Shown: positions 20,795 through 51,957 of the stretch, piece after piece
Layout of the letters: each line of letters starts with the position of its first letter
How positions within the stretch are numbered: position 1 is the stretch's first letter
DNA from: an uncultured Lachnospiraceae bacterium
GTDB taxonomy: Bacteria; Bacillota; Clostridia; Lachnospirales; Lachnospiraceae
NCBI GenBank assembly: GCA_947178125.1
Contig: CAMWXB010000003.1
Location: 28,919 to 92,918, forward strand
Length of the DNA stretch: 64,000 nt
Reading direction: 5' to 3'
The notes under the pieces: model-generated
What the model was told of the DNA's origin: nothing
The model's database searches: none
What the model saw: the letters and a program-made list of their open reading frames with translations, nothing else
Position numbers and translations under genes: made by a program

Positions 20795-20821
20795 TAAAGT
20801 AAATCGGAGAAACACCGATAT
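20795..20821 (+). promoter_or_regulatory. sigma-28-type promoter of the flagellin gene
   Basis: TAAAGTAA-N11-ACCGATAT, about 225 nt upstream of the fliC ATG. Confidence 0.65.
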
Positions 20822-22230: not shown

Positions 22231-22317
22231 ATCTATTACCATGCCTTTCTCTCAACCTGCGATATTTGAGCCGCAGGCACAAATTCGCGGTTGAAAAATC
22301 TCTGATTTTTCAACCTA
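22231..22317 (-). repeat. dispersed two-hairpin repeat, copy A
   Basis: The reverse complement reads TAGGTTGAAAAATCAGAGATTTTTCAACCGCGAATTTGTGCCTGCGGCTCAAATATCGCAGGTTGAGAGAAAGGCATGGTAATAGAT. Its leading TAG is the stop codon of gene 22315-23364. Confidence 0.85.
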
Positions 22318-23364: not shown

Positions 23365-23418
23365 GATAGAGTTCTCCTTTTTGTTTCACTATTTAAGCTT
23401 GCTTGACCAGGCTGTAGT

Positions 23419-24486: not shown

Positions 24487-24538
24487 TTTAAAGAAAATCC
24501 TTTCTGTATCTGATGATAAACGGTGTCGGAGGCGTAAG

Positions 24539-25627: not shown

Positions 25628-25682
25628 AATAAGTTCTCCTTCTATATTATTTGTTGGTAATATTATCTGTTTAGTACAGTTC

Positions 25683-26495: not shown

Positions 26496-26563
26496 TTGAC
26501 TCCTTTCTTTTTGTCTGGCGCAGGCTTGTCATGGAGAATAGCATGTATTTTGGGCGTTCTTCG

Positions 26564-26700
26564 GTGTGAAGAAGATTTGCTTTGCAAATCCATAGAAGTT
26601 CCAAGTCAACTACGCTGACTTTGCGAAACAGCCAAGCCTGGGAACCAGGCTTTAGCTGTATGAGCAAGACTGCTTCGCAAGTCAGAACTTCTCTTCACAC
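26564..26700. other. 137-nt extended imperfect palindrome or structured element in the intergenic region
   Basis: Nested complementary segments:
- gtgtgaaga (26564-72) pairs with tcttcacac (26692-700).
- agaagttc (26594-601) pairs with gaacttct (26685-92).
- ctgactt(t)gcgaa (26615-27) pairs with ttcgcaagtcag (26674-85).
- acagc pairs with gctgt.
- aagcctgg-gaa-ccaggctt forms the apex.
- gatttgc-ttt-gcaaatc forms a side hairpin. Confidence 0.4.
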
Positions 26701-26783
26701 TAATAATCATGCCTTTCCCACAACCTGCGAGTTTGGGCGCAAGCACAAACTTGCGATTGAAAAATCTTTGATTTTTCAATCTA
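26694..26783 (-). repeat. dispersed two-hairpin repeat, copy B
   Basis: The reverse complement reads TAGATTGAAAAATCAAAGATTTTTCAATCGCAAGTTTGTGCTTGCGCCCAAACTCGCAGGTTGTGGGAAAGGCATGATTATTAGTGTGAA. Gene 26776-28047 terminates at the TGA inside its first 8 nt. Confidence 0.85.
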
Positions 26784-28047
26784 GCATTTCCCGAACCCGA
26801 TGGCGGTAGGTGTGCGCCGCAGCAATCTTATCGTGTCCGTTTCGGGCGATTTGGAGGCGTTCGGCCTCATTGGCCAGGTAATAGTCGATCTTATTTAGCA
26901 AGTCCGATTTGCTTTCATAAAAATCAAAATCTTCGCCTGGTGTAAAATAATCCAGAAAGTCATTTTGATAATTGCTGAGCAGAAAACCGCCGCTGCCCAT
27001 GATATCGAAAGCGCGCTGTGGAATGCCGCTCTTAATACTGCGCAGCGATATATTCAGATTAATTCTGCTCTGCTTGAAAACAAGAGGCATTTCCCGGTAA
27101 TTGTCAACGGAGCCGTGGTTGGTGAGACCGGGAAGCTGGAAGTTTCTGTCATGCGTAAATAAGTCAAAGGGATGTTTCCCGGCGATGGCCTGAATGAGGT
27201 CATATCGTTCCAGTCCTGTAATCTTGCGGTTGATGACATACTGTGCATAGAGATATTCCTTTGTTTCCACGCCGTCAGGATTCGGTTCCATGGGGAGTGC
27301 GTAATATAAGTCTTCCATAATAGGAGACAATGATTCCTGTATGAAGTTATATCCCTGCACATTCATCTGCGCGGACATCAGCGCATCCAGATAACCTCTG
27401 GTATAATCGGACAGACCGGTCATCCGTTCGAAGAAGTTATGCTTCTCGGTATAGAGGGAGCCGATGAAAGAGATGTCGTATAAAAAGCTGCGGTTATCCA
27501 TACTAATAACCATGTCCTTCTTCTCAACCTGCGAACTTTGGGCCGCAGGCACAAATTCGCGATTGAAAAATCTCTGATTTTTCAATCTATTTGTATTCGT
27601 ATGATTGGTATCAGCATAATGGGCTGTATCAGGAAGCAGCGTATCCAGCCGTTCCACGTTCGCGGCCATCGGCAGGTAATGCACGGTGGAAATGCCGGCT
27701 TTATGAAATTCCAGATAGACATCTTTATCAAAGACATAAATCGTATTGCATGGATTGATGGCAGTGTACGAATATAACATGACATAGGGACTGTCATAAA
27801 TCCACGAGATATAGCGGATGTTTTCCTGCTTGCAGACATTGGAAACAATCGGAAAGTAGTTGAAAGAAAAGACAATATCCGGCGTTTCTTTGTGGAGAAG
27901 GGCAGGAAGTCCGGCTACGGCCGAACCATCGCTTCTTGCATCTTTGTTGAAAAAAGGGAAGCAGACGAGGGTATGACCCTCTTTGCGGAATGCCTCTTTC
28001 ATATCTTCATTTCCATAGCTTGCCCATTCGATGAATAGTATTTTCAT
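26776..28047 (-). CDS. CgeB-like glycosyltransferase, paralog 3, carrying an in-frame repeat insertion
   Basis: RINLNISLRSIKSGIPQRAFDIMGSGGFLLSNYQNDFLDYFTPGEDFDFY...NGHDKIAAAHTYRHR. At 423 aa it is longer than its paralogs (395 and 390 aa). The extra segment ...NRLKNQRFFNREFVPAAQSSQVEKKDMVISMD... is encoded by repeat copy C. Confidence 0.6.
   Translation of the reverse strand: MKILFIEWASYGNEDMKEAFRKEGHTLVCFPFFNKDARSDGSAVAGLPALLHKETPDIVFSFNYFPIVSNVCKQENIRYISWIYDSPYVMLYSYTAINPCNTIYVFDKDVYLEFHKAGISTVHYLPMAANVERLDTLLPDTAHYADTNHTNTNRLKNQRFFNREFVPAAQSSQVEKKDMVISMDNRSFLYDISFIGSLYTEKHNFFERMTGLSDYTRGYLDALMSAQMNVQGYNFIQESLSPIMEDLYYALPMEPNPDGVETKEYLYAQYVINRKITGLERYDLIQAIAGKHPFDLFTHDRNFQLPGLTNHGSVDNYREMPLVFKQSRINLNISLRSIKSGIPQRAFDIMGSGGFLLSNYQNDFLDYFTPGEDFDFYESKSDLLNKIDYYLANEAERLQIARNGHDKIAAAHTYRHRVREMLD
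27498..27589 (-). repeat. dispersed two-hairpin repeat, copy C (inside a CDS)
   Basis: The reverse complement reads TAGATTGAAAAATCAGAGATTTTTCAATCGCGAATTTGTGCCTGCGGCCCAAAGTTCGCAGGTTGAGAAGAAGGACATGGTTATTAGTATGGA. It is read through in its only open frame. Confidence 0.85.
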
Positions 28048-28216
28048 GCCAGTCCTCCATGCAAATAGTATAGCAAAAGTTTGGGGATTTGGAAAGAGTG
28101 AAGGTTTTTTGCGTTGATTATGTGTGGTACTTTAGGTTGACAGAACGGCACATATTTTATAAAGTATATATATCTTATTTTATAATATGTAGAGTATGAA
28201 GGAGCAGAAAATAATC

Positions 28217-28933
28217 ATGAATATCGCTATGATTTTAGCAGGCGGAACAGACTCAAGATTTCAAATGAGTGTTCCCAAGCAATTTGTGAATGTTTATAAT
28301 CGGCCGGTAATTGTTTATACATTGGAGGCTTTTCAGAGACATGATGAAATTGATGCAATCATGGTCTCTTGTCTGGATGGCTGGCAGGAAATGGTCAGAG
28401 CATACGCAAAACAGTTTAATATCACTAAATTGAAATGGGTCATTCCGGGGGGCCGGGACGGACAGGCATCCGCAAGAAACGGTATTCTTGCTTTGAAAGA
28501 AAAATGCCACGATGATGACATGGTCATTCTTCACGATTCTATCAGACCTTTTGTATCAGAGGATATTATCACCGACAGCTTAAGAGTATGCCGAATCCAT
28601 GGTATGGGGGTGGCGGCAGTGCGGACGATGGATACCATTATGAAAACGCAGGATGGTCTGGTAGGAACAGATAGTATTTCGCGTTATGCGATTATTCGAA
28701 TTCAGACACCGCAGGCATACAGAATGGATAAACTCTGGGATGTTCATGAAAAAGCAATTGAAAAAGGGATTACAGGAGAAGTAGATACCAACAGCGTTAT
28801 TTCAAAGCTGGGCGAATCAGTGTATTTTTCAAAGGGCTCCGATTTGAATATGAAGATCAATACAGTGGAAGACGTGGAAATGTTTAAGGCATTGTACAAG
28901 ATGCGGCAGGAAGCGGAGAAGGAAAATACGTGA
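28217..28933 (+). CDS. IspD/TarI-family cytidylyltransferase, paralog 1
   Basis: MNIAMILAGGTDSRFQMSVPKQFVNVYNRPVIVYTLEAF...GGRDGQASARNG...IQTPQAY is the nucleotidyltransferase signature. The start is set at 28217 by alignment with the paralog and by GAAGGAG upstream. Confidence 0.7.
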   Translation: MNIAMILAGGTDSRFQMSVPKQFVNVYNRPVIVYTLEAFQRHDEIDAIMVSCLDGWQEMVRAYAKQFNITKLKWVIPGGRDGQASARNGILALKEKCHDDDMVILHDSIRPFVSEDIITDSLRVCRIHGMGVAAVRTMDTIMKTQDGLVGTDSISRYAIIRIQTPQAYRMDKLWDVHEKAIEKGITGEVDTNSVISKLGESVYFSKGSDLNMKINTVEDVEMFKALYKMRQEAEKENT

Positions 28934-28970
28934 AAAGCGGTAGATTATAAAAGGAAGCAGAGGTTTACGG

Positions 28971-29681
28971 ATGAATATAGCACTATTGCTGGCTGGTGGC
29001 AGCGGAACGAGAACGGAGCAGGATGTTCCCAAACAGTTTTTTAATGTATATGAAAAGCCAATCATTATCTATACACTGGAAGCTTTTCAGCGGCATCCGG
29101 ATATCGATGGGATTATTGTTTCCTGTCTGGAAGGCTGGCATGAGATTTTGAGCGCGTATGCGAGAGAAGCCGGGATTACGAAATTACAGAAAGTAGTATG
29201 CGGTGGAGAAAATGGACAGGCATCCGCCAGAAACGCTCTGCGGGAATTAAAAGGTGTTTGTGAATTGGATGATATTGTTATCATTCATGATGCAATACGC
29301 CCGATGGTCTCTGCAGAAATCATATCCGACTGTATTGTAAAATGTAAGCAATATGGTTCCGGTCTTGCGGCAATGCGTTGCCAGGAGACAATTGTCGAAA
29401 CTAATGATGGAATTAAGGGGGATACAGGTATCAGCCGAAATCATATCATGCGCGTACAGACACCTCAGGCGTATAAATATGGAACCGTGATGGACGCTCA
29501 TGAAAAAGCGTTGGAACAGGGTATTACGAACGCTGTTTATACGAACACGCTGATGCTTGATTTGGGGGAGACGCTTTACTTTGCAATGGGCTCTGAGAAG
29601 AATCTGAAGATTACGACGATGGAGGATGTGGAGATTTTTAAGGCACTGCTCAAGATGAAGAGAGAGGATTGGGTGAAATAG
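28971..29681 (+). CDS. IspD/TarI-family cytidylyltransferase, paralog 2
   Basis: MNIALLLAGGSGTRTEQDVPKQFFNVYEKPIIIYTLEAF...GGENGQASARNA...VQTPQAY. It is clearly paralogous to 28217-28933. Confidence 0.7.
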   Translation: MNIALLLAGGSGTRTEQDVPKQFFNVYEKPIIIYTLEAFQRHPDIDGIIVSCLEGWHEILSAYAREAGITKLQKVVCGGENGQASARNALRELKGVCELDDIVIIHDAIRPMVSAEIISDCIVKCKQYGSGLAAMRCQETIVETNDGIKGDTGISRNHIMRVQTPQAYKYGTVMDAHEKALEQGITNAVYTNTLMLDLGETLYFAMGSEKNLKITTMEDVEIFKALLKMKREDWVK

Positions 29682-29989: not shown

Positions 29990-30016
29990 TAATGTTTTAT
30001 TTCGTTTTGCCGATAT
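29990..30016 (+). promoter_or_regulatory. sigma-28-like promoter ahead of the AT-rich 31-gene array
   Basis: TAATGTTT-N11-GCCGATAT has a perfect -10 element and 3/4 match in the -35 core. It lies about 215 nt upstream of the ATG at 30233, inside a 550-nt AT-rich spacer. Confidence 0.45.
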
Positions 30017-30232: not shown

Positions 30233-31588
30233 ATGCGTAAATTTCAGAAACAGCAATTATTAGATATTGTTGTAAGTTTGCACACTCTTCATCAGGAAAG
30301 CAAGGGTAGGATGGAGAAAAAAGACTATGTGACAGTTCAGAGTGCTTTATCTGATTGTCAGGAAGCGGCAATTCAGATGGGAGAAGCAATTGAACGGATG
30401 GAGGGAACGGGGACTGCTGCTGTCGCTTATTTAGAAAAATATTGCGAAAAATTGTATCAAGTTAATATGCAATTAGAGGAAATATCCGCGCAGAAAGCCT
30501 ATAAATCACTGGAAAGTATTCTGGTAAAGGCCGAAAATGAAATCAATCATATGTCGGTGCGTAAAGAAGTCGTATTTCTACCATACAAGGTAAGTATGTG
30601 GGATTCTATGGAAAGTGTATATCTGGCAGCGAAAGAAGATGAAAATTGTGATGCGTATGTAGTGCCAATTCCATATTATGACAGAAAAATGGATAGAAGC
30701 TTGGGAGAAATGCATTATGAAGGCAACGAATATCCTAAGAATATAGAAATTACGGATTATAGAATATATAATGTGGAAGAAAGACGTCCAGATGTTATTT
30801 ATATTCATAATCCATATGATGAATTTAATAATGTTACCTGTGTTCCAGAGGAGTTTTATAGCAGGCATCTTAAAAATTATACAGACTGCTTAGTTTATAT
30901 ACCTTATTTTATATTGGGTGAAATAGAACCGGATGACCAAAAACGGATAGATGGGATGAGTCACTTTTGTTTTGTACCAGGAGTTATTTACGCACATAAA
31001 GTTATCGTTCAATCTGAAAAGATGCGACAGATATATATTAATGAATATATTAAAGCCGCAAAATCAGTGAGGTTACCGATAGACCAGAATATGTTAAAGC
31101 ATAAAATACTGGGTATTGGTTCACCTAAATTGGATAAGATGAAAAATACTAAAAAAGAGGATTTGGAAATACCTGAAGAGTGGCTAAGAGTTATAGAGAA
31201 ATCGGATGGAACATGGAAAAAGATTGTTTTTTATAATACAAGTATTAATGCCTTATTAAGGCATAATGGACGCATGTTGAAAAAAATAAGAAATGTTTTT
31301 CAATATTTTAAGGAACGGCAGTATAAGGTTGCGCTTTTTTGGAGACCACATCCATTGATACCGAGTACAATAAAGTCCATGAGACCAGAGTTGTGGGCAG
31401 AATATGAGAAAATTGAGAGAAAATACAGGGAAGAAGGATGGGGGATTTATGATGATAGTGCAGACCTGAATAGGGCTATCGCGATAAGTGATGCATATTA
31501 TGGGGATAATAGCAGTGTTGTAAATTTATATAAAAAAACAGGAAAACCGTTAATGCTGCAAAATGTAGACGAGGGTGAAGAATTATGA
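30233..31588 (+). CDS. putative TagB/TagF-like CDP-alditol/glycerol phosphotransferase family protein
   Basis: IVFYNTSINALL, GIGSPKLDKM and ALFWRPHPL resemble the ILYAPTWR / GxPRxD / HP motifs of the glycerophosphotransferase family. This is a by-eye call only. Its stop overlaps the cysP start (ATGA). Confidence 0.4.
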   Translation: MRKFQKQQLLDIVVSLHTLHQESKGRMEKKDYVTVQSALSDCQEAAIQMGEAIERMEGTGTAAVAYLEKYCEKLYQVNMQLEEISAQKAYKSLESILVKAENEINHMSVRKEVVFLPYKVSMWDSMESVYLAAKEDENCDAYVVPIPYYDRKMDRSLGEMHYEGNEYPKNIEITDYRIYNVEERRPDVIYIHNPYDEFNNVTCVPEEFYSRHLKNYTDCLVYIPYFILGEIEPDDQKRIDGMSHFCFVPGVIYAHKVIVQSEKMRQIYINEYIKAAKSVRLPIDQNMLKHKILGIGSPKLDKMKNTKKEDLEIPEEWLRVIEKSDGTWKKIVFYNTSINALLRHNGRMLKKIRNVFQYFKERQYKVALFWRPHPLIPSTIKSMRPELWAEYEKIERKYREEGWGIYDDSADLNRAIAISDAYYGDNSSVVNLYKKTGKPLMLQNVDEGEEL

Positions 31589-32622
31589 AAAAAAGAAAAA
31601 TACGCGTGTGTTTATATGTACTAATAATTGTTTTGTTAACAGCAATAATTTCAGGATGCAGCCAAGCTTCTGATGTTGTGTCAGATAATGATGCAAATAT
31701 AGAAATGTTAAATGTTTCTTATGATCCTACAAGAGAGTTTTATGCAGCGTATAATGAATTGTTCTGTGAATACTGGAAAAGAGAAAATGGGCAGAATGTT
31801 ATGATAACTCAGTCACATGGAGGTTCTGGTTCACAGGCGCGTTCTGTAATAGAAGGTAATGAGGCTGATGTAGTAACATTGGCACTTGCTCATGATATTA
31901 CGGCAATTGAAGAAAGTGGAATGATTGACAGTGGGTGGTTGAATGAATTCTCTGGTAATAGTTCTCCATATACATCAACGATTGTATTTCTGGTACGAAA
32001 AGGAAATGAAAAGAATATACAAGATTGGGATGATCTGATAAGGGATGGAGTAGAAGTAATTACACCAAATCCAAAGACATCAGGTGGCGCATGTTGGAAT
32101 TTCCTTGCTGCATGGGCTTATCAGGAGGTGCAAGATGGTGGTAATGAAGAAGAAACCAGAGAATTTATGAAAAAGTTGTATAAAAATGTGTTGGTATTAG
32201 ATTCGGGCGCCAGAGGAGCAACAAACACTTTCGTAGAGAATGGTCAGGGTGATGTGTTGATTGCTTGGGAGAACGAGGCATATCTTTCAATTAAAGAATA
32301 TCCTGATGAGTATGAAATTATAACTCCAAGTATCAGTATTTTGGCACAACCATCCGTCGCGATAGTGGATAGTAACGTAGACGAACATGGAACTAGAGAA
32401 GTAGCGGAGGCTTATTTGGAGTATTTATACAGTGATGAGGCTCAGAGGCTAGCGGGTAATCATTATTATCGTCCATTTAAGGAAAATATTTTGCAAGAAT
32501 TTTCGGAACAGTTTGATCTTAATATGAATCTTGTTACAATTGATGATTTTGGTGGATGGGATGAGGCATATCGGATTTATTTTGATGATGGTGCAATTTT
32601 TGACCAGATATATGAGGATTAG
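31585..32622 (+). CDS. cysP: sulfate/thiosulfate ABC transporter substrate-binding lipoprotein
   Basis: Lipobox LLTAIISGC. NVSYDPTREFYAAYNELF...QSHGGSGSQARSVIEGNEADVVTLALAHDI...PYTSTIVFLVRKGN...ITPNPKTSGGACWNFLAAWAY is near-collinear with E. coli Sbp/CysP. Confidence 0.9.
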   Translation: MKKRKIRVCLYVLIIVLLTAIISGCSQASDVVSDNDANIEMLNVSYDPTREFYAAYNELFCEYWKRENGQNVMITQSHGGSGSQARSVIEGNEADVVTLALAHDITAIEESGMIDSGWLNEFSGNSSPYTSTIVFLVRKGNEKNIQDWDDLIRDGVEVITPNPKTSGGACWNFLAAWAYQEVQDGGNEEETREFMKKLYKNVLVLDSGARGATNTFVENGQGDVLIAWENEAYLSIKEYPDEYEIITPSISILAQPSVAIVDSNVDEHGTREVAEAYLEYLYSDEAQRLAGNHYYRPFKENILQEFSEQFDLNMNLVTIDDFGGWDEAYRIYFDDGAIFDQIYED

Positions 32623-32710
32623 ATTGAAAAATCAGAGATTTTTCAATCGCGAATTTATGCCTGAGGCGAAAATATCGCAGGTTGTGAGAAAGGCATAATT
32701 ATTAGTATGA
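32620..32710 (+). repeat. dispersed two-hairpin repeat, copy D
   Basis: TAGATTGAAAAATCAGAGATTTTTCAATCGCGAATTTATGCCTGAGGCGAAAATATCGCAGGTTGTGAGAAAGGCATAATTATTAGTATGA. Its leading TAG is the cysP stop codon. Confidence 0.85.
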
Positions 32711-32785
32711 AATTTTATTCAGCATGGATTTATTAACAATTTACATTTTATTAGTGAGACAGTCTGGAAAGGAATATTTTACTTT

Positions 32786-33637
32786 ATGGAGCAGCAGATT
32801 ATAAAAGTAAAGAATAAGAAAGGCGTCAGAGTGATTCCGGGATTTGGACTTTCTTTAGGGGTAACACTTTTTATGCTGGGAACGCTTGTATTAATTCCAT
32901 TAGTATCTATATTTATTAGTGCCAGTCAACTCAGTTTTCAAGAATTCGTAAATATTATTATATCCCGTCAGATTGTATCTGGTTATGTTGTCAGCTTATC
33001 TTGCGCATTTTTTGCAGCTTTGATAAATGCAGTGTTTGGTTTGATGCTTGCATGGGTTTTAGTGCGGTATGATTTTCCGGGAAAGCGCTTGATGGATGGC
33101 CTGATTGAATTACCGTTTGCATTGCCGACTGCTGTAGCCGGTATTTCTCTTACATATCTTTATTCAGATAAAGGGTGGATTGGTTCTTTTTTTGACAAAG
33201 CTGGTATTAAGATTGCATATACGCGAATTGGTATAACATTAGCTATGATATTTGTGGGAATTCCATTTGTGGTAAGGGCGGTACAGCCTGTTTTGGAAAA
33301 GCTGGACAGGCAGTATGAGGAGGCCGCAATGATGCTTGGAGCAAGTGGAACATATACTTTTTTTCGTGTAGTTTTACCTGAATTGTTCCCGGCGTTGCTT
33401 GCAGGTTTTGGCCTTGCATTTGCAAGAGGAATTGGAGAGTATGGAAGCGTAGTATTTATTGCTGGCAATATTCCATATAAGACTCAGATAGCGCCGCTTC
33501 TGATTATGAGTAAGCTGGAACAATATAAATATGAAGATGCTACTGCAATTGCGCTTGTATTGCTGTTGATTTCTTTTTTTCTGATGTTCTTGATAAATTC
33601 TTTACAGATTTATATGCAGAAATTTAGTAGAACATAA
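32786..33637 (+). CDS. cysT: sulfate ABC transporter permease CysT
   Basis: A multi-TM protein with the EAA loop motif EEAAMMLGASGTYTFFRVVLP and LELPFALPTAVAGI, typical of CysT/CysU. Confidence 0.85.
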   Translation: MEQQIIKVKNKKGVRVIPGFGLSLGVTLFMLGTLVLIPLVSIFISASQLSFQEFVNIIISRQIVSGYVVSLSCAFFAALINAVFGLMLAWVLVRYDFPGKRLMDGLIELPFALPTAVAGISLTYLYSDKGWIGSFFDKAGIKIAYTRIGITLAMIFVGIPFVVRAVQPVLEKLDRQYEEAAMMLGASGTYTFFRVVLPELFPALLAGFGLAFARGIGEYGSVVFIAGNIPYKTQIAPLLIMSKLEQYKYEDATAIALVLLLISFFLMFLINSLQIYMQKFSRT

Positions 33638-33665
33638 TGTGTTTGGTGAAATGGGGAATTACATA

Positions 33666-34550
33666 ATGAAAGAAAAAAAAAGGAATTATGATCAGGATAT
33701 TGTAGGCGATGGAATAAATTCCATACAGAAAGTATTGGAACCTGCGAGCAGAGTTTCGAATAATACTGTGAAATATGCATTGATAGGTATTTGTACACTA
33801 TTTCTGTTGGTCATGTTGGTTCTGCCTTTAGTGGTGGTAATCGTAAACGCATTAAAAGATGGATGGATGGCTTATAGGAAAGCTGTGCAGGATGAATACA
33901 CAATTAAGGCACTGCAGCTTACATTGTTAGCGACTGTAGCTGCAGTAGCTATAAATACAATATTTGGTTTGTTTGCTTCTTTTCTCTTGTCAAAGTTCTA
34001 TTTCAAGGGGCGTCAGTTATTAGCTACATTGATTGATATTCCTTTTTCTATATCTCCGGTAATTGCAGGTTTGGCATTTATTTTAACTTTTGGAAATATT
34101 GGATGGATGGGAGATTTTTTGAAGAATCATGGTATAAAAATTGTATTTGCAGTACCGGGAATTATTTTGGCTACCATATTTGTTACATTTCCGTTTGTTT
34201 TTCGTGAATTATTTCCAGTGATGAACGCTCAGGGAAAAGATGAAGAAGAAGCGGCAGCACTTATGGGTGCAAATGGCTTTACTATTTTCCGCAGAATAAC
34301 ATTTCCACATATTAAATGGGCGTTGCTATATGGAATTATATTGTGTGCTGCCAGAGCGATGGGAGAATTTGGCGCAGTATCAGTAATTTCTGGTCATTTA
34401 AGGGGTAAGACGAATACGCTGCCGCTTCATGTGGAGATTCTTTATAATGAGTTCAATACTACAGAGGCTTTTGCAGTATCATCAATATTGGTAATACTTG
34501 CAGTATTAATATTGATAGCTAAAAACTTCGTAGAATGGAAGAAAAAGTGA
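33666..34550 (+). CDS. cysW: sulfate ABC transporter permease CysW
   Basis: A multi-TM protein with EEAAALMGANGFTIFRRITFP and DIPFSISPVIAGL. The start is ambiguous between GTG 33639 and ATG 33666. Confidence 0.85.
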   Translation: MKEKKRNYDQDIVGDGINSIQKVLEPASRVSNNTVKYALIGICTLFLLVMLVLPLVVVIVNALKDGWMAYRKAVQDEYTIKALQLTLLATVAAVAINTIFGLFASFLLSKFYFKGRQLLATLIDIPFSISPVIAGLAFILTFGNIGWMGDFLKNHGIKIVFAVPGIILATIFVTFPFVFRELFPVMNAQGKDEEEAAALMGANGFTIFRRITFPHIKWALLYGIILCAARAMGEFGAVSVISGHLRGKTNTLPLHVEILYNEFNTTEAFAVSSILVILAVLILIAKNFVEWKKK

Positions 34551-34564
34551 GGAATAGGGTCGAT

Positions 34565-35302
34565 ATGTATGTAGAAATGAAGCAGATTAATAAGACTTTT
34601 GATGGTTTTCATGCTTCCAACAATGTGAGTTTTGGAGTAGAAAGAGGATATTTGGCCGCATTGCTTGGTCCTAGTGGAAGCGGAAAGACAACTATTTTAA
34701 GAATGATTGCCGGGTTGGATAAACCGGATTCGGGCGATATACTGATAAATGGAACAAAAGTGAATGATATGCCGGGAAGCAAAAGAGGAATCGGATTTGT
34801 ATTTCAGAATTATGCGCTGTTTCGATATATGACTGTGGCTGACAATATTGCCTTTGGGCTTGAGGTACAGAAAAAGAGCAAGACAGAAATTAAAAATCGT
34901 GTAGAGGAACTTTTACAATTAATTTCCATGGAAGAATTAGGCAGTCGTTATCCACACCAGTTATCAGGAGGGCAGCGTCAACGAGTGGCATTTGCTCGAG
35001 CATTGGCACCAAATCCGCAGCTTTTGCTGCTGGATGAGCCGTTTGCAGCAATTGATGCCAAGGTGCGTAGAGAACTTCGTGTTTGGCTTAAGGGAATGAT
35101 TGAAATGGTAGGAATAACCAGTATTTTTGTTACACATGATCAAGAGGAAGCTATGGAAGTGGCGGACACAGTCATTATTACTAATCAGGGAAATGTAGAG
35201 CAGATTGGTACACCGGAAGAAATTTGCATGCATCCTCAGACAGATTTTGTCGCAGACTTTATTGATGCTACACGATGTGAAGCAATGGTTGCAGCAAGAT
35301 GA
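34565..35302 (+). CDS. cysA: sulfate ABC transporter ATP-binding protein CysA (short form)
   Basis: Walker A GPSGSGKTT, signature LSGGQRQRVAFARAL, Walker B LLLLDEPF and H-loop VTHD. The protein ends about 20 aa after the ATPase core. Confidence 0.85.
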   Translation: MYVEMKQINKTFDGFHASNNVSFGVERGYLAALLGPSGSGKTTILRMIAGLDKPDSGDILINGTKVNDMPGSKRGIGFVFQNYALFRYMTVADNIAFGLEVQKKSKTEIKNRVEELLQLISMEELGSRYPHQLSGGQRQRVAFARALAPNPQLLLLDEPFAAIDAKVRRELRVWLKGMIEMVGITSIFVTHDQEEAMEVADTVIITNQGNVEQIGTPEEICMHPQTDFVADFIDATRCEAMVAAR

Positions 35303-35374
35303 TTTTTTAAAATCAATAAGTTCATGTTATTTTGATATAAGTGATATTGATTATTTGTATGAAGGTGATAAGCA

Positions 35375-36151
35375 ATGAAGTGGGAGAGAGAACTGAAAGT
35401 AGCACAAAATGCGGCAATCAAAGCAGGAGAAGCAATCATAAAAATATATAATTTTGAAAAGTTTGATGTGACATATAAGGATGATAAGTCACCACTTACA
35501 ATGGCAGATAAAGAGGCTAATAAAATTATTGTGGAGATGTTGTCCAAAGATTTTCCGGAATATGCGATTTTATCTGAAGAAGAAAAAGATAATAAGGAGA
35601 GGCTGAAAAATGACTATTGTTTTGTGGTTGATCCATTAGATGGAACAAAGGAATTTATAAAACGTAATGGACAGTTTACAGTAAATATTGCATTAACATA
35701 TAAAGGGAGGTCTGTTATGGGAACAATATATGTTCCAGTAACAAAGGAATTATTTTGGGCGTCAGAAAATAGCGGAGCGTACTTAACAATAAATGAAGAA
35801 ACAAAACGAATACAGGTATCAGATAGAAAAGAAAATATTCGAGTAGTAATGAGTAATTCACATGGGTGTGCAGAAATGGATAATTTGATAAGGATAAATA
35901 ATCTTACTAATTATGTAAAAATTGGAAGTTCTCTAAAAGGTTGTATAATTGCAAAAGGTGATGCGGAGATTTATTATCGTTTTAATCCAACTATGGAATG
36001 GGATACCGCAGCCATGCAATGTATCGTGGAAGAAGCTGGTGCGATTTTTAGACAAATGGACGACACACCGATGAGATATAATCGTGAGGATTGTTTGAAT
36101 TCAAAAGGTTTTTATATTATTAATTGTTCAGAGAATAAAATGAAATGGTAA
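35375..36151 (+). CDS. cysQ: 3'(2'),5'-bisphosphate nucleotidase (PAP phosphatase)
   Basis: Inositol-monophosphatase fold motifs are ILSEEE, FVVDPLDGTKEF and MEWDTAAMQCIVEEAG. Its position between cysA and cysD supports a CysQ role. Confidence 0.7.
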   Translation: MKWERELKVAQNAAIKAGEAIIKIYNFEKFDVTYKDDKSPLTMADKEANKIIVEMLSKDFPEYAILSEEEKDNKERLKNDYCFVVDPLDGTKEFIKRNGQFTVNIALTYKGRSVMGTIYVPVTKELFWASENSGAYLTINEETKRIQVSDRKENIRVVMSNSHGCAEMDNLIRINNLTNYVKIGSSLKGCIIAKGDAEIYYRFNPTMEWDTAAMQCIVEEAGAIFRQMDDTPMRYNREDCLNSKGFYIINCSENKMKW

Positions 36152-36169
36152 GGATGAAAAGAGGAAAAC

Positions 36170-37069
36170 ATGAGAGAGTTAACGCATTTGGAACAATTAG
36201 AAGCAGAAGCAATATATATTATGAGAGAAGTTGCTGCTGAATGTGAGAAGCCGGTTATGCTTTATTCAATTGGAAAAGATAGTTCTGTTATGCTACATTT
36301 GGCAATGAAAGCATTTTATCCGGAAAAACCTCCATTTCCGTTTTTGCATATTGATACTACTTGGAAATTTAAGGAAATGATAACGTTTCGAGATGAGACG
36401 GCTAAAAAACTTGGAATAGAAATGTTGGTATATACGAATATGGATGGCGTAAAACAGGGGATAAATCCTTTCAATCATGGTTCGGCATATACTGATATTA
36501 TGAAAACGCAGGCTTTAAAACAAGCATTGGATATGTATGGATTTACAGCGGCATTTGGTGGCGGAAGACGGGATGAGGAGAAGTCTCGTGCAAAAGAACG
36601 AGTATTTTCTTTTAGAAATGCCCAGCATGCATGGGATCCTAAAAATCAAAGACCGGAAATGTGGAGGCTCTATAATACAAAGGTTAACAAAGGCGAGTCT
36701 ATTAGGGTATTTCCGCTGTCGAATTGGACAGAAAAGGATATCTGGCAATATATTCGTCAGGAAAATATAGATATTGTTCCGCTTTATTATGCGAAAGAGA
36801 GACCCGTTGTATATAGAGATGGAAATATTATTATGGTAGATGATGACAGAATGAAACTGAATTCAGGTGAAAAAATTGAAATGAAGAAGGTTCGTTTCAG
36901 GACATTAGGATGTTATCCATTGACTGGAGGGGTAGAGTCGAAGGCTGATACATTGGATGCTATTATTGAAGAAACCTTACAGGCAATTACTTCCGAACGG
37001 ACTAGCAGAGTAATAGATCATGAGGCTGCGGGAAGTATGGAAAGGCGCAAAAGAGAGGGATATTTCTAG
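36170..37069 (+). CDS. cysD: sulfate adenylyltransferase subunit 2
   Basis: [48 protein letters not shown]...[22 protein letters not shown]...[11 protein letters not shown]...[19 protein letters not shown] is collinear with E. coli CysD. Confidence 0.92.
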
Positions 37070-37070
37070 A

Positions 37071-38906
37071 ATGAAGAGCTTATTAAAATTTATCACATGC
37101 GGTAGTGTAGATGACGGAAAATCTACTTTGATAGGGCATATGCTTTATGATGCAAAATTAATATTTGCGGATCAGGAAAAAGCATTGGAATTAGATAGTA
37201 AAATAGGAAGCCGCGAAGGCAAAATTGATTATTCTCTTTTGTTGGATGGGTTGATGGCAGAGCGGGAACAAGGAATTACAATAGATGTAGCATATAGGTA
37301 TTTTACTACGGAAAAGAGAAGCTTTATTGTTGCGGATACACCGGGCCATGAAGAGTATACAAGAAATATGGCAGTGGGAGCTTCGTTTGCAGATGTTGCT
37401 GTAATTCTGGTAGATGCTACGCAGGGAATGTTAATTCAGACAAGACGTCATATTAGAATATGTTCGTTGATGGGAATTAAACATTTCGTTTTTGCCATTA
37501 ATAAAATGGATTTAGTTCATTATGATAAAAATATTTATGACAAAATATCCAGAGATATTAAGAGGTTTGTGGGAGAGTTTGATGTGGATAGTATCAAAAT
37601 GATACCGGTGTCAGCTACGGAGGGCGATAACGTTACTAAACATTCATTTAAAATGTTATGGTATCAAGAGGAAACTTTGCTGGAATATCTTGAGGATATT
37701 GAATTAATTAATTTTTCAAAGCAAGAAGAATTTCTTATGGCGGTACAGAGAGTCAGTAGACCGAATCATAATTTCAGGGGTTTTCAGGGGCAGATTAATG
37801 CAGGAGAGGTATCTGTTGGAGATGATATTATAGTATTGCCGAGTGGTGAGCATGCAAAAGTATCGGGGATTTATGTGACGGATCAAGAAGTAAAAACAGC
37901 ACAGATGGGACAGCCTGTGACAATACAATTAGATAGTGAGATAGATATATCCAGGGGATGTGTAATTTGTAAAAATACCAGCATGAAAGTAACTGGCATA
38001 TTTACATCCAAACTGTTCTGGATGGATGAAGAAGCACTAATTCCAGGGAGAAATTATTGGATAAAATTAGGAACTAAAATTCTTCCGGCTGCAGTGATGA
38101 ATATTAAATATAAAATAGATGTGAACAGTGGAGAGCAAATTCCTGCGGAGCATATTTATAAAAATGAATTAGCTGTATGTGATGTGATACTTTCTGAAAA
38201 ATGTGCTGTAGATATATTTGATCATAATAAAGATTTAGGAAGTTTCATTTTTATTAACAGAGTATCGAATATGACGTCAGCTTGCGGAACGGTGATGCAT
38301 ACTCTTAGACGTTCAGATAATTTAGTATGGCATGAGACTGATATTACCAAAAAAATTCGTTCCGAGCAGAAAAACCAGAAGACTAGAACGGTGTGGTTCA
38401 CAGGATTGTCAGGATCAGGAAAATCTACACTTGCTAATGAATTAGAGAAACAACTGGTGGCAATGGGAAGACATACAATGCTTTTAGATGGTGATAATAT
38501 TCGCATGGGATTGAATAAAAATCTTGGATTTACTGAAGTGGACAGGGTGGAAAATATACGAAGAATTGCGGAAGTTGCGAAACTCATGAATGATGCAGGG
38601 CTTATTGTGCTTACGGCATTTATTTCACCGTATGAGAAAGATAGGGAAAATGCCAGAGAGATTATTGGAGATGATTTCTTTGAAGTGTACGTCAGCACGT
38701 CTCTTGAGGAATGTGAAAGAAGAGATGTTAAAGGGTTGTATAAGAAGGCGCGAAATGGCGAGATACCTAATTTCACAGGCATTACAAGTCCCTATGAGGT
38801 GCCGAAATCTCCCAATCTTATAATTGACACAAAAGAAATCACGTTGGACGATGCAGTATCTTTATTAATAGAAAAGTTAGAAGAAAATGAGAGGAATAAT
38901 GTATGA
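37071..38906 (+). CDS. cysNC: bifunctional sulfate adenylyltransferase subunit 1 / adenylylsulfate (APS) kinase
   Basis: GTPase domain CGSVDDGKSTLIGHMLYD, DTPGHEEY and NKMD. C-terminal APS kinase P-loop VWFTGLSGSGKSTLANELE...LLDGDNIRMGLN. The ATG lies 2 nt after the cysD stop. Confidence 0.92.
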   Translation: MKSLLKFITCGSVDDGKSTLIGHMLYDAKLIFADQEKALELDSKIGSREGKIDYSLLLDGLMAEREQGITIDVAYRYFTTEKRSFIVADTPGHEEYTRNMAVGASFADVAVILVDATQGMLIQTRRHIRICSLMGIKHFVFAINKMDLVHYDKNIYDKISRDIKRFVGEFDVDSIKMIPVSATEGDNVTKHSFKMLWYQEETLLEYLEDIELINFSKQEEFLMAVQRVSRPNHNFRGFQGQINAGEVSVGDDIIVLPSGEHAKVSGIYVTDQEVKTAQMGQPVTIQLDSEIDISRGCVICKNTSMKVTGIFTSKLFWMDEEALIPGRNYWIKLGTKILPAAVMNIKYKIDVNSGEQIPAEHIYKNELAVCDVILSEKCAVDIFDHNKDLGSFIFINRVSNMTSACGTVMHTLRRSDNLVWHETDITKKIRSEQKNQKTRTVWFTGLSGSGKSTLANELEKQLVAMGRHTMLLDGDNIRMGLNKNLGFTEVDRVENIRRIAEVAKLMNDAGLIVLTAFISPYEKDRENAREIIGDDFFEVYVSTSLEECERRDVKGLYKKARNGEIPNFTGITSPYEVPKSPNLIIDTKEITLDDAVSLLIEKLEENERNNV

Positions 38907-40072
38907 TAAAGGATCATGAGTTACTCAGAAATATTAATTTATTGTATACAAAGAAGTTTGTGATTTGGGGATTGGGTGAGAGAGGAAAAGAATTAGCGGA
39001 AAGAATGTACGAGCAGACAAAAGACATCAGCTTTGTTGATTCAGATAAGACTAAGGTAGGCGTATGGGGAAAAATCCCAGTTTTTAGTCCAGAAAAAATT
39101 GCAGAGTATTCCAAAGTAGAAATTGCAATTGTAATACCAACGGATAATGAGAATGTGCAGGAAAGCATTATGGGGCAGATTATATCAATGGGGTATCAGG
39201 ATATTGATTTATATACCAGGTATGCAATGGATGCAATTTTAAGTTTTGTGAAGAAGAATAAGAGTATTGAAAGCAGGGGGGAGACTAAGCAGGAACTTTT
39301 ATCAATGAAGATAGAAGCGCAGCAAGGAAGAATAAATTACTTGAGTAATTTATGTAAGATGATGAATCAGATATTATTGGCCGAAATAGCGGACAATTCA
39401 GTATATGTATATCAAAGTAAGAAAGTTGCTTCCACATCGATATATGTGGGCGCCAGAGCCGCAGGCGTGTTCGGTGTTCATGTGCATAATTTTGCAGTAC
39501 TTGATTTGCCTGATTGTTTGGTGAAGAGCATGATAAAAAAGACATCAGGTAAAGTGATTTCGATTGTTAGAGAACCGGTCGCACGGCAGATTTCTTTGCT
39601 ATGGTCTTATTGGAAAAACGGAGAGTCTTTTCTTAAGAATTATGGTTCGCTGGAGGAGTTGGAAAGCAAGTTTTATTCAATTCCCAATAAAGAGGATGAA
39701 TTTGAATGGTACCACAAAGAGTTTAAAGACATATTAGATGTTAATATATATGATTATCCATTTGATCGAGATCTTGGATATTCAATTATAGAGAAAGATG
39801 GAATTTCAATACTATTATTGAAATTGGAAAAATTAAGTTCTCTGGAAAAAGTAATTGGTGATTTTCTTGAAGTAGAGAATTATAAATTAGTGAATACTAA
39901 TACAGGTAAAGAAAAATCTTATCGGTATGCATATGAAAATTATTTAGAACATGTAAAAATACCACGGGCATTTTGGGAACATTATTATTCTAAAAATGAA
40001 TATATGGATTATTTTTATACGGAAGCTGAGAAAAAGATGTTTTTTGAGCATTGGAAAGAATACTTGCGATGA
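38903..40072 (+). CDS. putative PAPS-dependent sulfotransferase with an N-terminal PglD_N-like Rossmann module
   Basis: YQSKKVASTSIY resembles the 5'-PSB loop (PKxGTT/S) and IVREPVARQISLLWSY resembles the 3'-PB motif (RxPxxRxxS). The N-terminus is FVIWGLGERGKELAERM...SFVDSD. Its ATG overlaps the cysNC stop (GTATGA). Confidence 0.55.
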   Translation: MIKDHELLRNINLLYTKKFVIWGLGERGKELAERMYEQTKDISFVDSDKTKVGVWGKIPVFSPEKIAEYSKVEIAIVIPTDNENVQESIMGQIISMGYQDIDLYTRYAMDAILSFVKKNKSIESRGETKQELLSMKIEAQQGRINYLSNLCKMMNQILLAEIADNSVYVYQSKKVASTSIYVGARAAGVFGVHVHNFAVLDLPDCLVKSMIKKTSGKVISIVREPVARQISLLWSYWKNGESFLKNYGSLEELESKFYSIPNKEDEFEWYHKEFKDILDVNIYDYPFDRDLGYSIIEKDGISILLLKLEKLSSLEKVIGDFLEVENYKLVNTNTGKEKSYRYAYENYLEHVKIPRAFWEHYYSKNEYMDYFYTEAEKKMFFEHWKEYLR

Positions 40073-40117: not shown

Positions 40118-41950
40118 ATGATTATTTTAGGAATTTCTGCATTATATCATGATGCTGCAGCAAGTTTGGTTATTGATGGGAAAATAACGGCGGCGGCTCA
40201 ACAGGAGAGATTTTCAAGAAAAAAACATGATATGGGTATACCTTATAATGCAATAAAATTTTGCCTCAAAGAAGGGAATGTAACTTCAAAGGATATTGAC
40301 TATATTGTGTTTTATGATAATCCGCTTTTGACTTTAGATAGATATATGAAGAACATTTTAGCTGCAGGGGATGATTCAAGAGATGTAATAGAGCGAAGCT
40401 ATATTTCTATGTTTACACAAAAAATATGGATACATAACGTAATACATAATCTTCTGGATACAGATGCAGAGATTCTGATTTGCGAACATCATGTATCGCA
40501 TGCCGCATCCGCTTTTTATCCATCTCCATTTGAAGAAGCTGTCGTTATTACACTGGATGGAGTAGGTGAGTGGGCAACAACTACTATAGGGGTTGGAAGA
40601 GGCGCTGAGTTAATTATAAAAGAGGAAATAAAGTTCCCACATTCATTAGGATTGTTATATAGTGCTTTTACTTACTTTTGCGGATTCAAAGTTAATTCCG
40701 GTGACTATAAATTTATGGGTCTGGCGCCATATGGAGAGCCTATTTATGAAGAGACTATACGTGAACATCTAATAGATATAAAAGAAGATGGTTCATTTAG
40801 ATTAAATTTGGAATATTTTGATTTTCAGTATGGAAGAGCAATGACAAATGATAAATTCGGAGCACTTTTTGGGGGAGGACGAAGAGAACCAGAAACAGTA
40901 ATAACAAAACGAGAAATGGATATTGCGGCTTCGGCACAGAAAGTTACTGAAGATATTATTTTAAAAATGGTAAAACATGCAAAGAATGAATATGGAGAAG
41001 ATATAGATAATTTAGTATTAGCAGGAGGAGTGGCACTAAATTGTGTTGCAAATGGAAAAATAAAGAATTCCGAAATATTTAAGAATATTTGGATACAGCC
41101 GGCGGCTGGTGATGCAGGCGGCAGTTTAGGTGCTGCATTATACACCGCGTATAATTATGCAGGAATTAAACGGGAAATAAATGGTATGGATTCACAAAAT
41201 GGAAGTTATTTAGGTCCTGCTTATTCCAATTTAAGCATTAAGGAATATTTGAAGTCAAATAATATAATGTATCATGAATATTCTGATGACGTATTATTTG
41301 ATAAGATTGCTGACGAATTGTCGAATGGTATGGTAATAGGTTTATTTCAGGGAAGAATGGAGTTTGGTCCACGTGCATTGGGTAATAGAAGTATAATTGC
41401 TGATCCAAGATCTGAAACAATGCAGAGTAAGCTGAATTTGAAGATAAAATATAGAGAATCATTTAGACCATTTGCACCTTCAGTATTAAGAGAAGATGTA
41501 AATGAATACTTTGAACTTAAAGATGAAAGTCCATATATGTTACTGGTTGAAAACGTGCAAAGTAATAGAAGGTGTGCAAGTAATGTGCAAAATGATCTAA
41601 TAAAATATGATAATAATATGCTGGAGATTGTAAAACAAAAAAGGTCAGATATATCGGCTGTTACCCATGTGGATTATAGCGCAAGAATTCAGACAGTGTC
41701 TGAAGAGAGGAATGGATATTATTATAAAGTATTAAAGGCCTTTAAAGAAAAAACCGGATGTAGTGTATTGGTTAATACATCTTTTAATGTAAGAGGTGAA
41801 CCAATAGTATGTACGCCAATGGATGCATATAAGTGTTTTATGCGAACAGAGATGGATGTACTTGTATTAGAAAATTGCGTTTTATATAAAGAGGAACAGC
41901 CCGAATGGAATGAGCAGGAAGATTGGCATAAAACATATGAACTGGATTAG
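40118..41950 (+). CDS. NodU/CmcH-family carbamoyltransferase
   Basis: MIILGISALYHDAAASLVIDGKITAAAQQERFSRKKHD...HHVSHAASAF...GGVALNCVANGK...NTSFNVRGEPIV covers the family-wide motifs. Confidence 0.9.
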   Translation: MIILGISALYHDAAASLVIDGKITAAAQQERFSRKKHDMGIPYNAIKFCLKEGNVTSKDIDYIVFYDNPLLTLDRYMKNILAAGDDSRDVIERSYISMFTQKIWIHNVIHNLLDTDAEILICEHHVSHAASAFYPSPFEEAVVITLDGVGEWATTTIGVGRGAELIIKEEIKFPHSLGLLYSAFTYFCGFKVNSGDYKFMGLAPYGEPIYEETIREHLIDIKEDGSFRLNLEYFDFQYGRAMTNDKFGALFGGGRREPETVITKREMDIAASAQKVTEDIILKMVKHAKNEYGEDIDNLVLAGGVALNCVANGKIKNSEIFKNIWIQPAAGDAGGSLGAALYTAYNYAGIKREINGMDSQNGSYLGPAYSNLSIKEYLKSNNIMYHEYSDDVLFDKIADELSNGMVIGLFQGRMEFGPRALGNRSIIADPRSETMQSKLNLKIKYRESFRPFAPSVLREDVNEYFELKDESPYMLLVENVQSNRRCASNVQNDLIKYDNNMLEIVKQKRSDISAVTHVDYSARIQTVSEERNGYYYKVLKAFKEKTGCSVLVNTSFNVRGEPIVCTPMDAYKCFMRTEMDVLVLENCVLYKEEQPEWNEQEDWHKTYELD

Positions 41951-41971
41951 TTATATAGGAGCAGAATTAAC

Positions 41972-42322
41972 ATGGATAAAAATATCAAAGAGAAAGAACG
42001 CTTATTTCAATGGGCGTGTAAATATGATTCAATTAAGTTAACAGAAAAGATCTTTACTCCTATTGATTCAAATAAGGATAGTTATTTTACAAAACGTGAA
42101 GAGACAGGGAATTATTTGCATAAGTATAAGTTTCAGGATTTGCCGGAATTAAGGAATGAACTGGAAAAAATGTGGAATGAAGAAGATTATATGATGGAAA
42201 TAATGACAACTGTTTTAGCTGGTGCTTATAAAAATCGGATAGAGATTTGTGAAGAAATTGGTGAAGCGGTTAATGGAACTGGGGATGCAGAAGAATTATC
42301 CCCATACATTTATAATTTTTAG
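41972..42322 (+). CDS. hypothetical protein (116 aa)
   Basis: A good RBS (AGGAGC) is present and the gene is tightly packed between the carbamoyltransferase and the next gene. I recognised no motif. Confidence 0.4.
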   Translation: MDKNIKEKERLFQWACKYDSIKLTEKIFTPIDSNKDSYFTKREETGNYLHKYKFQDLPELRNELEKMWNEEDYMMEIMTTVLAGAYKNRIEICEEIGEAVNGTGDAEELSPYIYNF

Positions 42323-42332
42323 GAGGTGCTCT

Positions 42333-44177: not shown

Positions 44178-44181
44178 TAGA

Positions 44182-45036: not shown

Positions 45037-45063
45037 TTTATAATATGAAAGGAGCTTTTAGCC

Positions 45064-45928: not shown

Positions 45929-45966
45929 ATCATGTGGTTGTATATAAACTAATATAAAGAAGGCTG

Positions 45967-47429: not shown

Positions 47430-47448
47430 TAATTTATAAGGAGAAATT

Positions 47449-48576: not shown

Positions 48577-48612
48577 AATACAGGGATTGTTTTAAGTTTG
48601 TAGGAGGCAGAT

Positions 48613-49371: not shown

Positions 49372-49400
49372 AAAACATATGTGATATAAGGATGAATAAT

Positions 49401-50738: not shown

Positions 50739-50756
50739 TAATATTTTGTATGGAGT

Positions 50757-51944: not shown

Positions 51945-51957
51945 TCATGGTGATAAT

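Follow-up and report, generated by a model that had tools for sequence, protein, structure and literature searches.

In Sinorhizobium meliloti, NodP and NodQ form a dedicated set for making 3′-phosphoadenosine 5′-phosphosulfate (PAPS), clustered with the carbohydrate sulfotransferase NodH that acts on Nod factor. Flagellin glycans, for their part, carry nonulosonic acids and methyl, phospho-amino-acid and taurine groups. In Mycobacterium tuberculosis, CysDNC and SubI-CysTWA feed the Stf sulfotransferases of sulfolipid-1 synthesis (PMC4373884), sulfated capsule clusters of marine bacteria carry cysDNC (PMC11766843, PMC11641403), and gut Clostridia make PAPS from inorganic sulfate for the small-molecule sulfotransferase ErSULT of E. 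ramulus, a Lachnospiraceae enzyme that sulfates hydroxy fatty acids (PMC13449962). Among flagellin glycosylation systems, the ftaABCD cluster of type A C. difficile encodes FtaD, a TagF-like protein experimentally shown to be a flagellin-glycan phosphotransferase with a cytidine diphosphate (CDP)-activated donor, and larger fta-like clusters occur in a Lachnospiraceae species (bioRxiv 10.64898/2026.02.12.704994); the type B flagellin glycan bears a sulfur-containing acidic cap, a taurine sulfonate in peptidyl-amido linkage (PMC5207245). Sulfated N-glycans are found on the archaellins and S-layer proteins of the archaeon Halobacterium (PMC2913515, PMC2952790). The locus described here resides in a 64,000-nucleotide stretch of an uncultured Lachnospiraceae bacterium (contig CAMWXB010000003.1, positions 28,919 to 92,918; hereafter the window), where a seven-gene cys module and two candidate sulfotransferase genes, ST1 and ST2, lie in a glycan operon downstream of the flagellin gene fliC. 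On balance, this arrangement is rather probably a dedicated sulfation unit within an operon for flagellin O-glycan biosynthesis.

The genes cysP, cysT, cysW, cysA, cysQ, cysD and cysNC are consecutive on the plus strand (31585-38906; Table 1). This order, proposed in the first-pass annotation, is borne out by the map of open reading frames (ORFs) and by NCBIfam models scored against their curated cut-offs, with concordant Pfam matches and a borderline score for CysA, which is a short form of 255 amino acids (aa) without the C-terminal regulatory domain. The cysNC frame opens at 37020, and its start is probably the ATG one base past the cysD stop. CysD and CysNC together constitute a predicted set for making PAPS from sulfate, ATP and GTP. 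At both ends the module overlaps its neighbors: the stop of the preceding gene, orf451, shares the sequence ATGA with the cysP start (31585-31588), and the cysNC stop shares GTATGA with the ATG of ST1 (38901-38906), both as first described. The exact CysD of the window recurs on at least 20 contigs, which come from many samples and all have an identical layout. Consistent with the earlier account, Pfam scans of the larger ORFs in the 64-kb window returned CysD as the only match to a reductase of PAPS or of adenosine 5′-phosphosulfate (APS), and nothing for sulfite reductase, CysK or CysE; reductive-branch genes are likewise missing from four related loci (L015, L016, L040 and L042) over the length that each of them spans. 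Directly after the cysP stop is a perfect 12-bp hairpin (GAUUGAAAAAUC-AGA-GAUUUUUCAAUC, 32622-32655) lacking a U-run, and the 163-bp gap between cysP and cysT folds better than shuffled sequences (z = -2.6). This hairpin may tune how much binding protein is made relative to permease, or it may stabilize the transcript.

Both candidate sulfotransferases had been singled out at first pass for comparison with sulfotransferase families. ST2 passes the cut-off of PF00685 and matches the solved sulfotransferase 3rnl of the Protein Data Bank (PDB) with E = 2e-14, its KCGTTSL and VRNPVNAAFS segments aligning to the two PAPS-binding motifs, and its relatives are annotated as Lachnospiraceae sulfotransferases. 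By these matches, ST2 is a predicted canonical sulfotransferase. ST1, which directly follows cysNC, consists of a PglD_N-like domain, a long helix and an NKWYS domain, and PF10364 NKWYS is the sole Pfam family that it matches. This family is large, with 4,739 representatives at E <= 0.001 among 1.84 billion protein cluster representatives. The segments KKVASTS and REPVARQIS, previously read as PAPS-binding motifs, are present at residues 173-179 and 223-231.

Comparison of deep profiles places these motifs in a sulfotransferase framework. A profile built from 164 ST1-family sequences aligns with the sulfotransferase domain of the ST2 family over 159 columns (hhalign probability 85.5%, E = 5.7e-6), with YQxxKVxS falling on GFxKCGTTS and VREPxxRxxS on VRNPxxxxFS, such that the 5′-phosphosulfate-binding and 3′-phosphate-binding motifs are in register and the three hallmark segments of the two domains are collinear; control alignments with a reversed template and an unrelated domain gave 0.2% and 1.5%, respectively. 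Within the 164 diverse family members, the residues at K174, S177, H195, R223, P225 and S231 are conserved in 159, 157, 162, 163, 164 and 143 sequences, respectively. The Arg-x7-Ser spacing is identical in ST1 and ST2 and is shared by canonical sulfotransferases. The AlphaFold model of ST1 is confident (predicted local distance difference test score, pLDDT, of 90.7). A fold search with the full-length model returned matches to the N-terminal Rossmann-like domain only; the C-terminal domain was then modeled by itself, and its top and only whole-domain PDB match, a weak one, was human SULT1C3 with the product nucleotide 3′-phosphoadenosine 5′-phosphate (PAP) bound. We conclude that ST1 is a divergent protein of the sulfotransferase fold, which we infer to use PAPS.

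The N-terminal third of ST1 resembles, in fold searches, the nucleotide-sugar-binding N-domain of PglB, VioB and PglD-type acetyltransferases. This PglD_N-like domain is common to ST1 and ST2 (hhalign 94.5%), and a BLASTP comparison of the two proteins gave no significant similarity. In PglD, PglB and VioB, the PglD_N-type domain holds the nucleotide of a nucleoside diphosphate (NDP)-sugar. Because both ST1 and ST2 carry such a domain at the N terminus, their acceptors may be nucleotide-sugars, with sulfation preceding transfer. A module of this type (PglD_N or C2185-like_N) also occurs at the C terminus of the protein from orf365 (60552-61649) and at the N terminus of a 491-aa protein in the related locus L016 (12072-13547 of that locus); its recurrence suggests a substrate-handling domain common to several tailoring enzymes.

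Relatives of ST1 were sought in one genome per species, and the window proteins were used in tblastn searches for neighboring cys genes. Thirty-three loci from other species, mostly Lachnospiraceae, contain ST1 relatives. In 11 of these, cysD lies within 10 kb of the ST1 relative (L012-L016, L018-L020, L023, L029 and L039); cysNC is also present in nine of the 11 (all except L012 and L039), and cysP too in five (L013, L015, L018, L020 and L023). The full set appears in a different order in L015, from Hungatella, and in L023, where it reads sulfotransferase, cysD, cysNC, cysQ, cysP, cysT, cysW, cysA. In L004-L006, from another species, ST2 and ST1 are adjacent and accompanied by a stand-alone APS kinase. 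Six of the loci (L013, L014, L016, L018, L019 and L029) encode three-domain proteins of 600-700 aa, their genes at ~9.2-11.2 kb of each locus, in which a canonical-looking sulfotransferase N-domain (GMHRSGTS ... KDPR) precedes a PglD_N-like and an NKWYS domain; L016 has a tandem pair of such genes. The first-pass proposal of a PAPS supply dedicated to glycan sulfation is upheld, because the module is coupled to non-cys genes on both sides, two sulfotransferase-like proteins are encoded in the island, and ST1 relatives are repeatedly linked to cysD. That the module feeds the sulfotransferases of the island is very probable.

Flagellin is put forward as the target because of a conserved sigma-28-like promoter, the existence of other fliC-linked islands, and an enzyme set confined to the cytoplasm. 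Sigma-28-like sites were searched with the pattern TAA-N17-CCGATAW, the reference type being TAAA-N15-GCCGATAA. The window contains three such sites against 0.5 expected, a count reached in none of 100 shuffles, and all three are intergenic, on the plus strand and ahead of flaG-fliD-fliS, fliC and the island, respectively; the promoter that had earlier been placed in front of the island is one of this set. The island site is kept in same-species contigs, and L043, a close relative, keeps a TAAT-N15-GCCGATAC site ahead of its orf451 homolog. An orf451-cys copy at a non-flagellar locus (see below) has no sigma-28-like site upstream, and an extended -10 promoter of the sigma-70 type is found instead. 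Rfam searches of the window and seven related loci found no S-box, T-box or other riboswitch; clostridial genes for cysteine biosynthesis would be expected to have control of the riboswitch or T-box type.

The linkage to fliC is repeated in L016 and L019, from two other Lachnospiraceae, where fliC, two GT2 glycosyltransferase genes, an orf451 homolog, the sulfotransferase fusions, cysD and cysNC occur on one strand; these are two independent, putative fliC-linked sulfation islands. In the window, fliC is adjoined by five minus-strand glycosyltransferase genes that likely encode flagellin-directed transferases, three of them GT2 paralogs with tetratricopeptide repeats (TPR). The TPR domain is a presumed source of flagellin specificity on the example of GmaR and FlmG (PMC7591256). 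The five-gene block is kept in L043, and the GT2 homologs of L016 and L019 likewise come after fliC. With regard to the site of assembly, a hydropathy scan of 30 island ORFs identified CysT and CysW as the only multi-pass membrane proteins, and no flippase, polymerase, ATP-binding cassette (ABC) exporter or polyprenyl-phosphate/lipid-carrier transferase was found in the 34 kb of the island inside the window. So few membrane proteins would be expected if flagellin were glycosylated in the cytoplasm, and not for wall or capsule synthesis. The precedent of FtaD in C. difficile, a TagF-like enzyme acting on a flagellin glycan, also speaks for this target. Flagellin is thus predicted, with fair confidence, to be the acceptor.

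In the proposed pathway, CysPTWA would import sulfate, CysD and CysN would convert it to APS by adenylation, and the CysC domain fused to CysN would phosphorylate APS to PAPS. ST1 and ST2, as soluble two-domain sulfotransferases, would then pass sulfate from PAPS to sugars, with CysQ hydrolyzing PAP, the inhibitory product. The sulfated sugars would end on Ser/Thr-linked flagellin glycans, whose cytoplasmic assembly would fall to the TPR-glycosyltransferases encoded beside fliC and whose elaboration would fall to the TagF-like phosphotransferase, aminotransferase, amidotransferase, methyltransferases and carbamoyltransferase of the island. Expression of the operon would coincide with that of the late flagellar genes, through the sigma-28-type promoter. 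Two IspD/TarI-like enzymes encoded upstream would supply a CDP-activated donor to the TagF-like protein. A broader form of this proposal, that the filaments of a set of gut Lachnospiraceae bear O-glycan sulfate esters, set probably at the nucleotide-sugar stage by the PglD_N-NKWYS family from a private late-flagellar PAPS supply, is offered tentatively, its chances being a little short of even.

The TagF-like assignment of orf451, the first gene of the island, is a remote one. Described earlier simply as TagF-like, its product scores 17.8 bits against PF04464 Glyphos_transf, under the 22.1 cut-off, and gave no Pfam or NCBIfam match at default thresholds and no PDB sequence match; 22 of 25 family members, however, do match PF04464 (best E = 9e-7). 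The family is very large and highly conserved in Lachnospiraceae, with more than 6,490 matches at 65-79% identity. In L040-L042 the gene order is orf451, orf227, cysQ, cysD, cysNC, lacI (on the opposite strand) and cysPTWA. At the same non-flagellar site in another genome, heptose-type genes take the place of the cys genes, and elsewhere an orf451 homolog sits with TarI/TarJ-like genes. From these contexts it appears that orf451 heads variable glycan cassettes at no fewer than two sites. In L043, FliC is 93% and the IspD-like proteins 90-95% identical to those of the window, and the flagellar backbone is common up to the IspD-like genes, while the orf451 product is only 72% identical and the downstream cargo is wholly different, with heptose-type genes and no cys genes. 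The intergenic segment at ~29.7-30.2 kb is accordingly the likely boundary of cassette exchange.

As judged from gene order, orf451 and the cys genes form a unit that also occurs away from flagellar loci, and flagellar islands are not the only setting of the cys module; the arrangement in the window probably arose when the orf451-cys unit was recruited into a flagellar island and joined to sulfotransferases. Within the cys operon of L040-L042, orf451 is the sole transferase-like gene; the probability that its product itself uses APS or PAPS is low. The 227-aa gene product encoded beside it was considered as a hidden sulfotransferase and rejected, having neither motif nor family match. In L040-L042 and L044, the non-flagellar orf451-cys locus (~6-9.7 kb) is situated just downstream of a gene for an MCRA-type fatty-acid hydratase with a TetR regulator, and the parallel with hydroxy-fatty-acid sulfation by ErSULT may be a coincidence.

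Certain of these observations weigh against a dedicated flagellin sulfation unit, and three other explanations draw on them. The cys genes could serve general sulfate assimilation, with cysteine made by reductases encoded elsewhere, the sulfotransferases tapping the pool, and the location a by-product of island shuffling. CysDN, CysC and CysQ also make up the assimilatory set of E. coli, and the closest relatives of the window Cys proteins are those of L040-L042 (CysD 92-93% and CysN 78-80% identity), whose orf451-cys locus sits amid housekeeping genes, away from flagellar genes and with no sulfotransferase in reach. The occurrence of the unit at such a site therefore keeps assimilation alive as an explanation, and a cysH or sulfite reductase outside the window could also draw on the PAPS of the module. 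An assimilatory role is nevertheless decidedly unlikely, given that cysH, sulfite reductase, cysK and cysE are all missing from the window, that translational coupling ties the cys genes to a glycan gene at either end, that the promoter is sigma-28-like and not sulfur-responsive, that cys genes recur beside sulfotransferase genes in 11 other species, and that L043 has the same flagellar backbone without any cys genes at the site. The doubt may instead concern ST1, whose P-loop-like motif could serve a kinase or another group transfer, leaving ST2 alone to sulfate the glycan. No study of a PF10364 NKWYS member was found in the searchable literature, the profile of the ST1 catalytic domain found no match among PDB sequences, and only one of 16 NKWYS members had a secondary Pfam match to a Sulfotransfer family (E = 0.24). 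Moreover, the structural match to SULT1C3 is weak (Foldseek E = 0.025, template modeling score 0.42-0.44, root-mean-square deviation 12.6), and a shallow profile of 21 ST1 sequences, compared with the ST2-family domain, gave an alignment that was collinear and non-significant (hhalign probability 5.6%). Against a non-sulfotransferase role stand the deep profile match with its collinear segments and clean controls, the near-invariance of the Lys, Ser, His and Arg-x7-Ser positions, the overlap of the ST1 start with the cysNC stop, and the repeated location of family members beside cysD-cysNC, with fusions to domains that resemble canonical sulfotransferases; taken together, they make such a role improbable.

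The sulfated product might also be something other than a flagellin glycan: a different glycoprotein, a polymer of the wall or capsule, or a small molecule that is secreted. A putative part in capsule synthesis gave the NKWYS family its name, orf451-headed islands are also found away from flagellar genes, and the ErSULT precedent shows that a Lachnospiraceae sulfotransferase can act on hydroxy fatty acids with PAPS (PMC13449962). In addition, the island continues past the window end through an RgpF-like ORF, and export genes may lie beyond that edge. The sigma-28 assignment is a motif match, from which sigma-28 control is presumed, and sulfate on flagellin is itself a prediction from sequence. 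As a prediction, the first-pass designation of the flagellin glycan as the target is supported, the promoter and the L016 and L019 islands speaking for it and the non-flagellar orf451-cys unit against it. Even so, a product unrelated to flagellin appears unlikely: the 34 kb of the island contain none of the flippase, polymerase, exporter or lipid-carrier transferase genes named above, fliC and the TPR-glycosyltransferase genes come immediately before the island, the linkage to fliC has an independent counterpart in L016 and L019, and the sigma-28-like promoter is present at the flagellar-locus copies only.

The surroundings of the proposed flagellin sulfation unit are summarized in Table 1. 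Late flagellar genes occupy the left half of the window, namely two flgK-like genes, flgL, flaG, fliD, fliS and fliC, with glycosyltransferase genes among them. In this part (6767-12050 and 12864-16515), the genes for two FlgK-like hook-associated proteins (558 and 614 aa) are in tandem and FlgL is long (566 aa); the interval from flgL to flaG contains one GT2 gene and two glycosyltransferase genes of the DUF3880 type. FliD is unusually long. A gap of 550 bp separates the IspD/TarI-like genes from the island operon, and G+C content shifts from ~0.45 upstream to 0.32-0.37 from about 28 kb onward. From 30233 to the window end, the plus-strand series of ORFs is unbroken, with more than 30 genes and short gaps, forming a one-strand glycan operon that spans more than 34 kb and extends past the window. 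Pfam matches among its tailoring proteins include NodS and Carbam_trans. A three-gene insert downstream of ST1 (40118-44177) is missing from the same-species contigs L001-L003 and L046-L051; the adjacent ST1 is 89% identical to its same-species copies, with flanking genes at 97-100%. The insert and the divergent ST1 point to a patch of recent recombination. In other species, too, ST1 relatives have homologs of these three genes alongside them (L007, L009 and L033).

Table 1. Features of the window, with positions counted from its first nucleotide
Feature	Position	Strand	Basis and remarks
Sigma-28-like motif before flaG-fliD-fliS	16513-16539	+	
FlaG	16648-17112		PF03646
FliD	17131-19839	+	Pfam; 902 aa
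Sigma-28-like motif before fliC	20795-20821	+	TAAA-N15-ACCGATAT
fliC, flagellin	21047-22110	+	354 aa; Flagellin_N and Flagellin_C matches; ATG after AGGAGG
Five glycosyltransferase genes (three GT2-TPR paralogs, one GT2, one DUF3880/Glyco_trans_1_2)	22315-28047	-	Pfam
Two IspD/TarI-like cytidylyltransferase genes	28196-29681	+	PF01128; kept in L043
Sigma-28-like motif heading the island operon	29990-30016	+	TAAT-N15-GCCGATAT
orf451, remotely TagF-like (CDP-alcohol phosphotransferase-like), first island gene	30233-31588	+	
cysP/sbp, sulfate-binding lipoprotein	31585-32622	+	NF008022, 448 bits (cut-off 288); one N-terminal hydrophobic segment
cysT, sulfate ABC permease	32786-33637	+	TIGR02139, 383.5 bits (cut-off 246); six transmembrane-like segments
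cysW, sulfate ABC permease	33639-34550	+	TIGR02140, 354.5 bits (cut-off 329)
cysA, sulfate ABC ATPase	34535-35302	+	TIGR00968, 342.6 bits (cut-off 342.75, borderline); PF00005
cysQ, 3′(2′),5′-bisphosphate nucleotidase (PAP removal)	35375-36151	+	TIGR01331, 237.6 bits (cut-off 228.8)
cysD, ATP sulfurylase small subunit	36170-37069	+	NF009214, 524.5 bits (cut-off 413), full length
cysNC, GTPase subunit with fused APS kinase (probable start)	37071-38906	+	NF004035, 840 bits (cut-off 715); PF01583, PF00009
ST1, PglD_N-like domain, long helix, NKWYS domain	38903-40072	+	PF10364; 389 aa
Strain-specific insert: NodU/CmcH-type carbamoyltransferase, orf116, 642-aa GDSL-like protein	40118-44177	+	Pfam
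Glycan-tailoring genes: unknowns, SPASM protein, DegT aminotransferase, methyltransferase, AsnB-type amidotransferase, GT4	44140-55464	+	Pfam
ST2, PglD_N-like domain and canonical Sulfotransfer_1 domain	55497-56780	+	PF00685, 40.6 bits (cut-off 22)
Island remainder: GT4, GT2, methyltransferase, orf365, GT-D, RgpF-like ORF running off the window end	56829-64000	+	

No description of a sulfated bacterial flagellin, or of a PAPS-derived sulfate ester on flagellin, was found in a literature collection of about 8 million papers, and if the prediction is true, this would be the first. An Alteromonas paper that names both sulfation and flagellum terms was set aside as a precedent, since it concerns O-chain genes and not a flagellar island. 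The flagellins of Lachnospiraceae are major gut immune targets of the host, and a sulfated, strongly anionic coat on the filament could alter antigenicity, receptor recognition, interaction with mucus or phage adsorption. The analysis also gives the large and unstudied PF10364 NKWYS family a functional context and a motif-level mechanism, and brings to light a TagF-like family whose genes accompany cys genes in various Lachnospiraceae. The prediction of flagellin sulfation is directly testable by mass spectrometry.

Each of the systems outlined at the beginning shares some features with the locus in the window. As in NodPQ-NodH, a set of the CysD/CysN-CysC type is clustered with a sulfotransferase and with NodS-like methyl- and NodU-like carbamoyl-transfer enzymes, apparently for the decoration of a glycan and not for cysteine. 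Unlike the rhizobial set, the window adds a sulfate importer and CysQ, sulfation is predicted to act on a protein-linked glycan in place of a secreted lipo-chitooligosaccharide, and ST1 and ST2 have a different, two-domain architecture. With M. tuberculosis it shares CysD and the CysN-CysC fusion, a sulfate ABC importer of one type and the provision of PAPS to sulfotransferases; however, in that organism the genes are dispersed and contribute to cysteine synthesis as well, via APS reductase, whereas in the window they form one operon with the sulfotransferases.

Among flagellin systems, the islands of C. difficile types A and B are likewise clostridial O-glycan loci adjoining fliC, and FtaD with its CDP donor in type A is paralleled by the IspD-like genes and orf451 of the window. 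In type B the sulfur is that of a taurine sulfonate and not of a PAPS-derived sulfate ester, and cys genes and PAPS are unmentioned in its description (PMC5207245). Halobacterium offers a motility filament protein with sulfated glycans, as is predicted here, but the filament is archaeal and unrelated, its glycans are N-linked and assembled on a lipid carrier, and no self-contained PAPS operon has been described for it. The marine capsule, Bacteroides cholesterol sulfotransferase and ErSULT clusters resemble the window in that their sulfotransferases are co-located with, or dependent on, cysD, cysN, cysC and cysQ; their targets, by contrast, are exported polysaccharides or small lipids, none of them flagellum-linked or sigma-28-associated. 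Sulfation clusters with a dedicated PAPS supply are, then, already known, and what is new in the window is the placement of such a cluster inside a flagellin glycosylation island.

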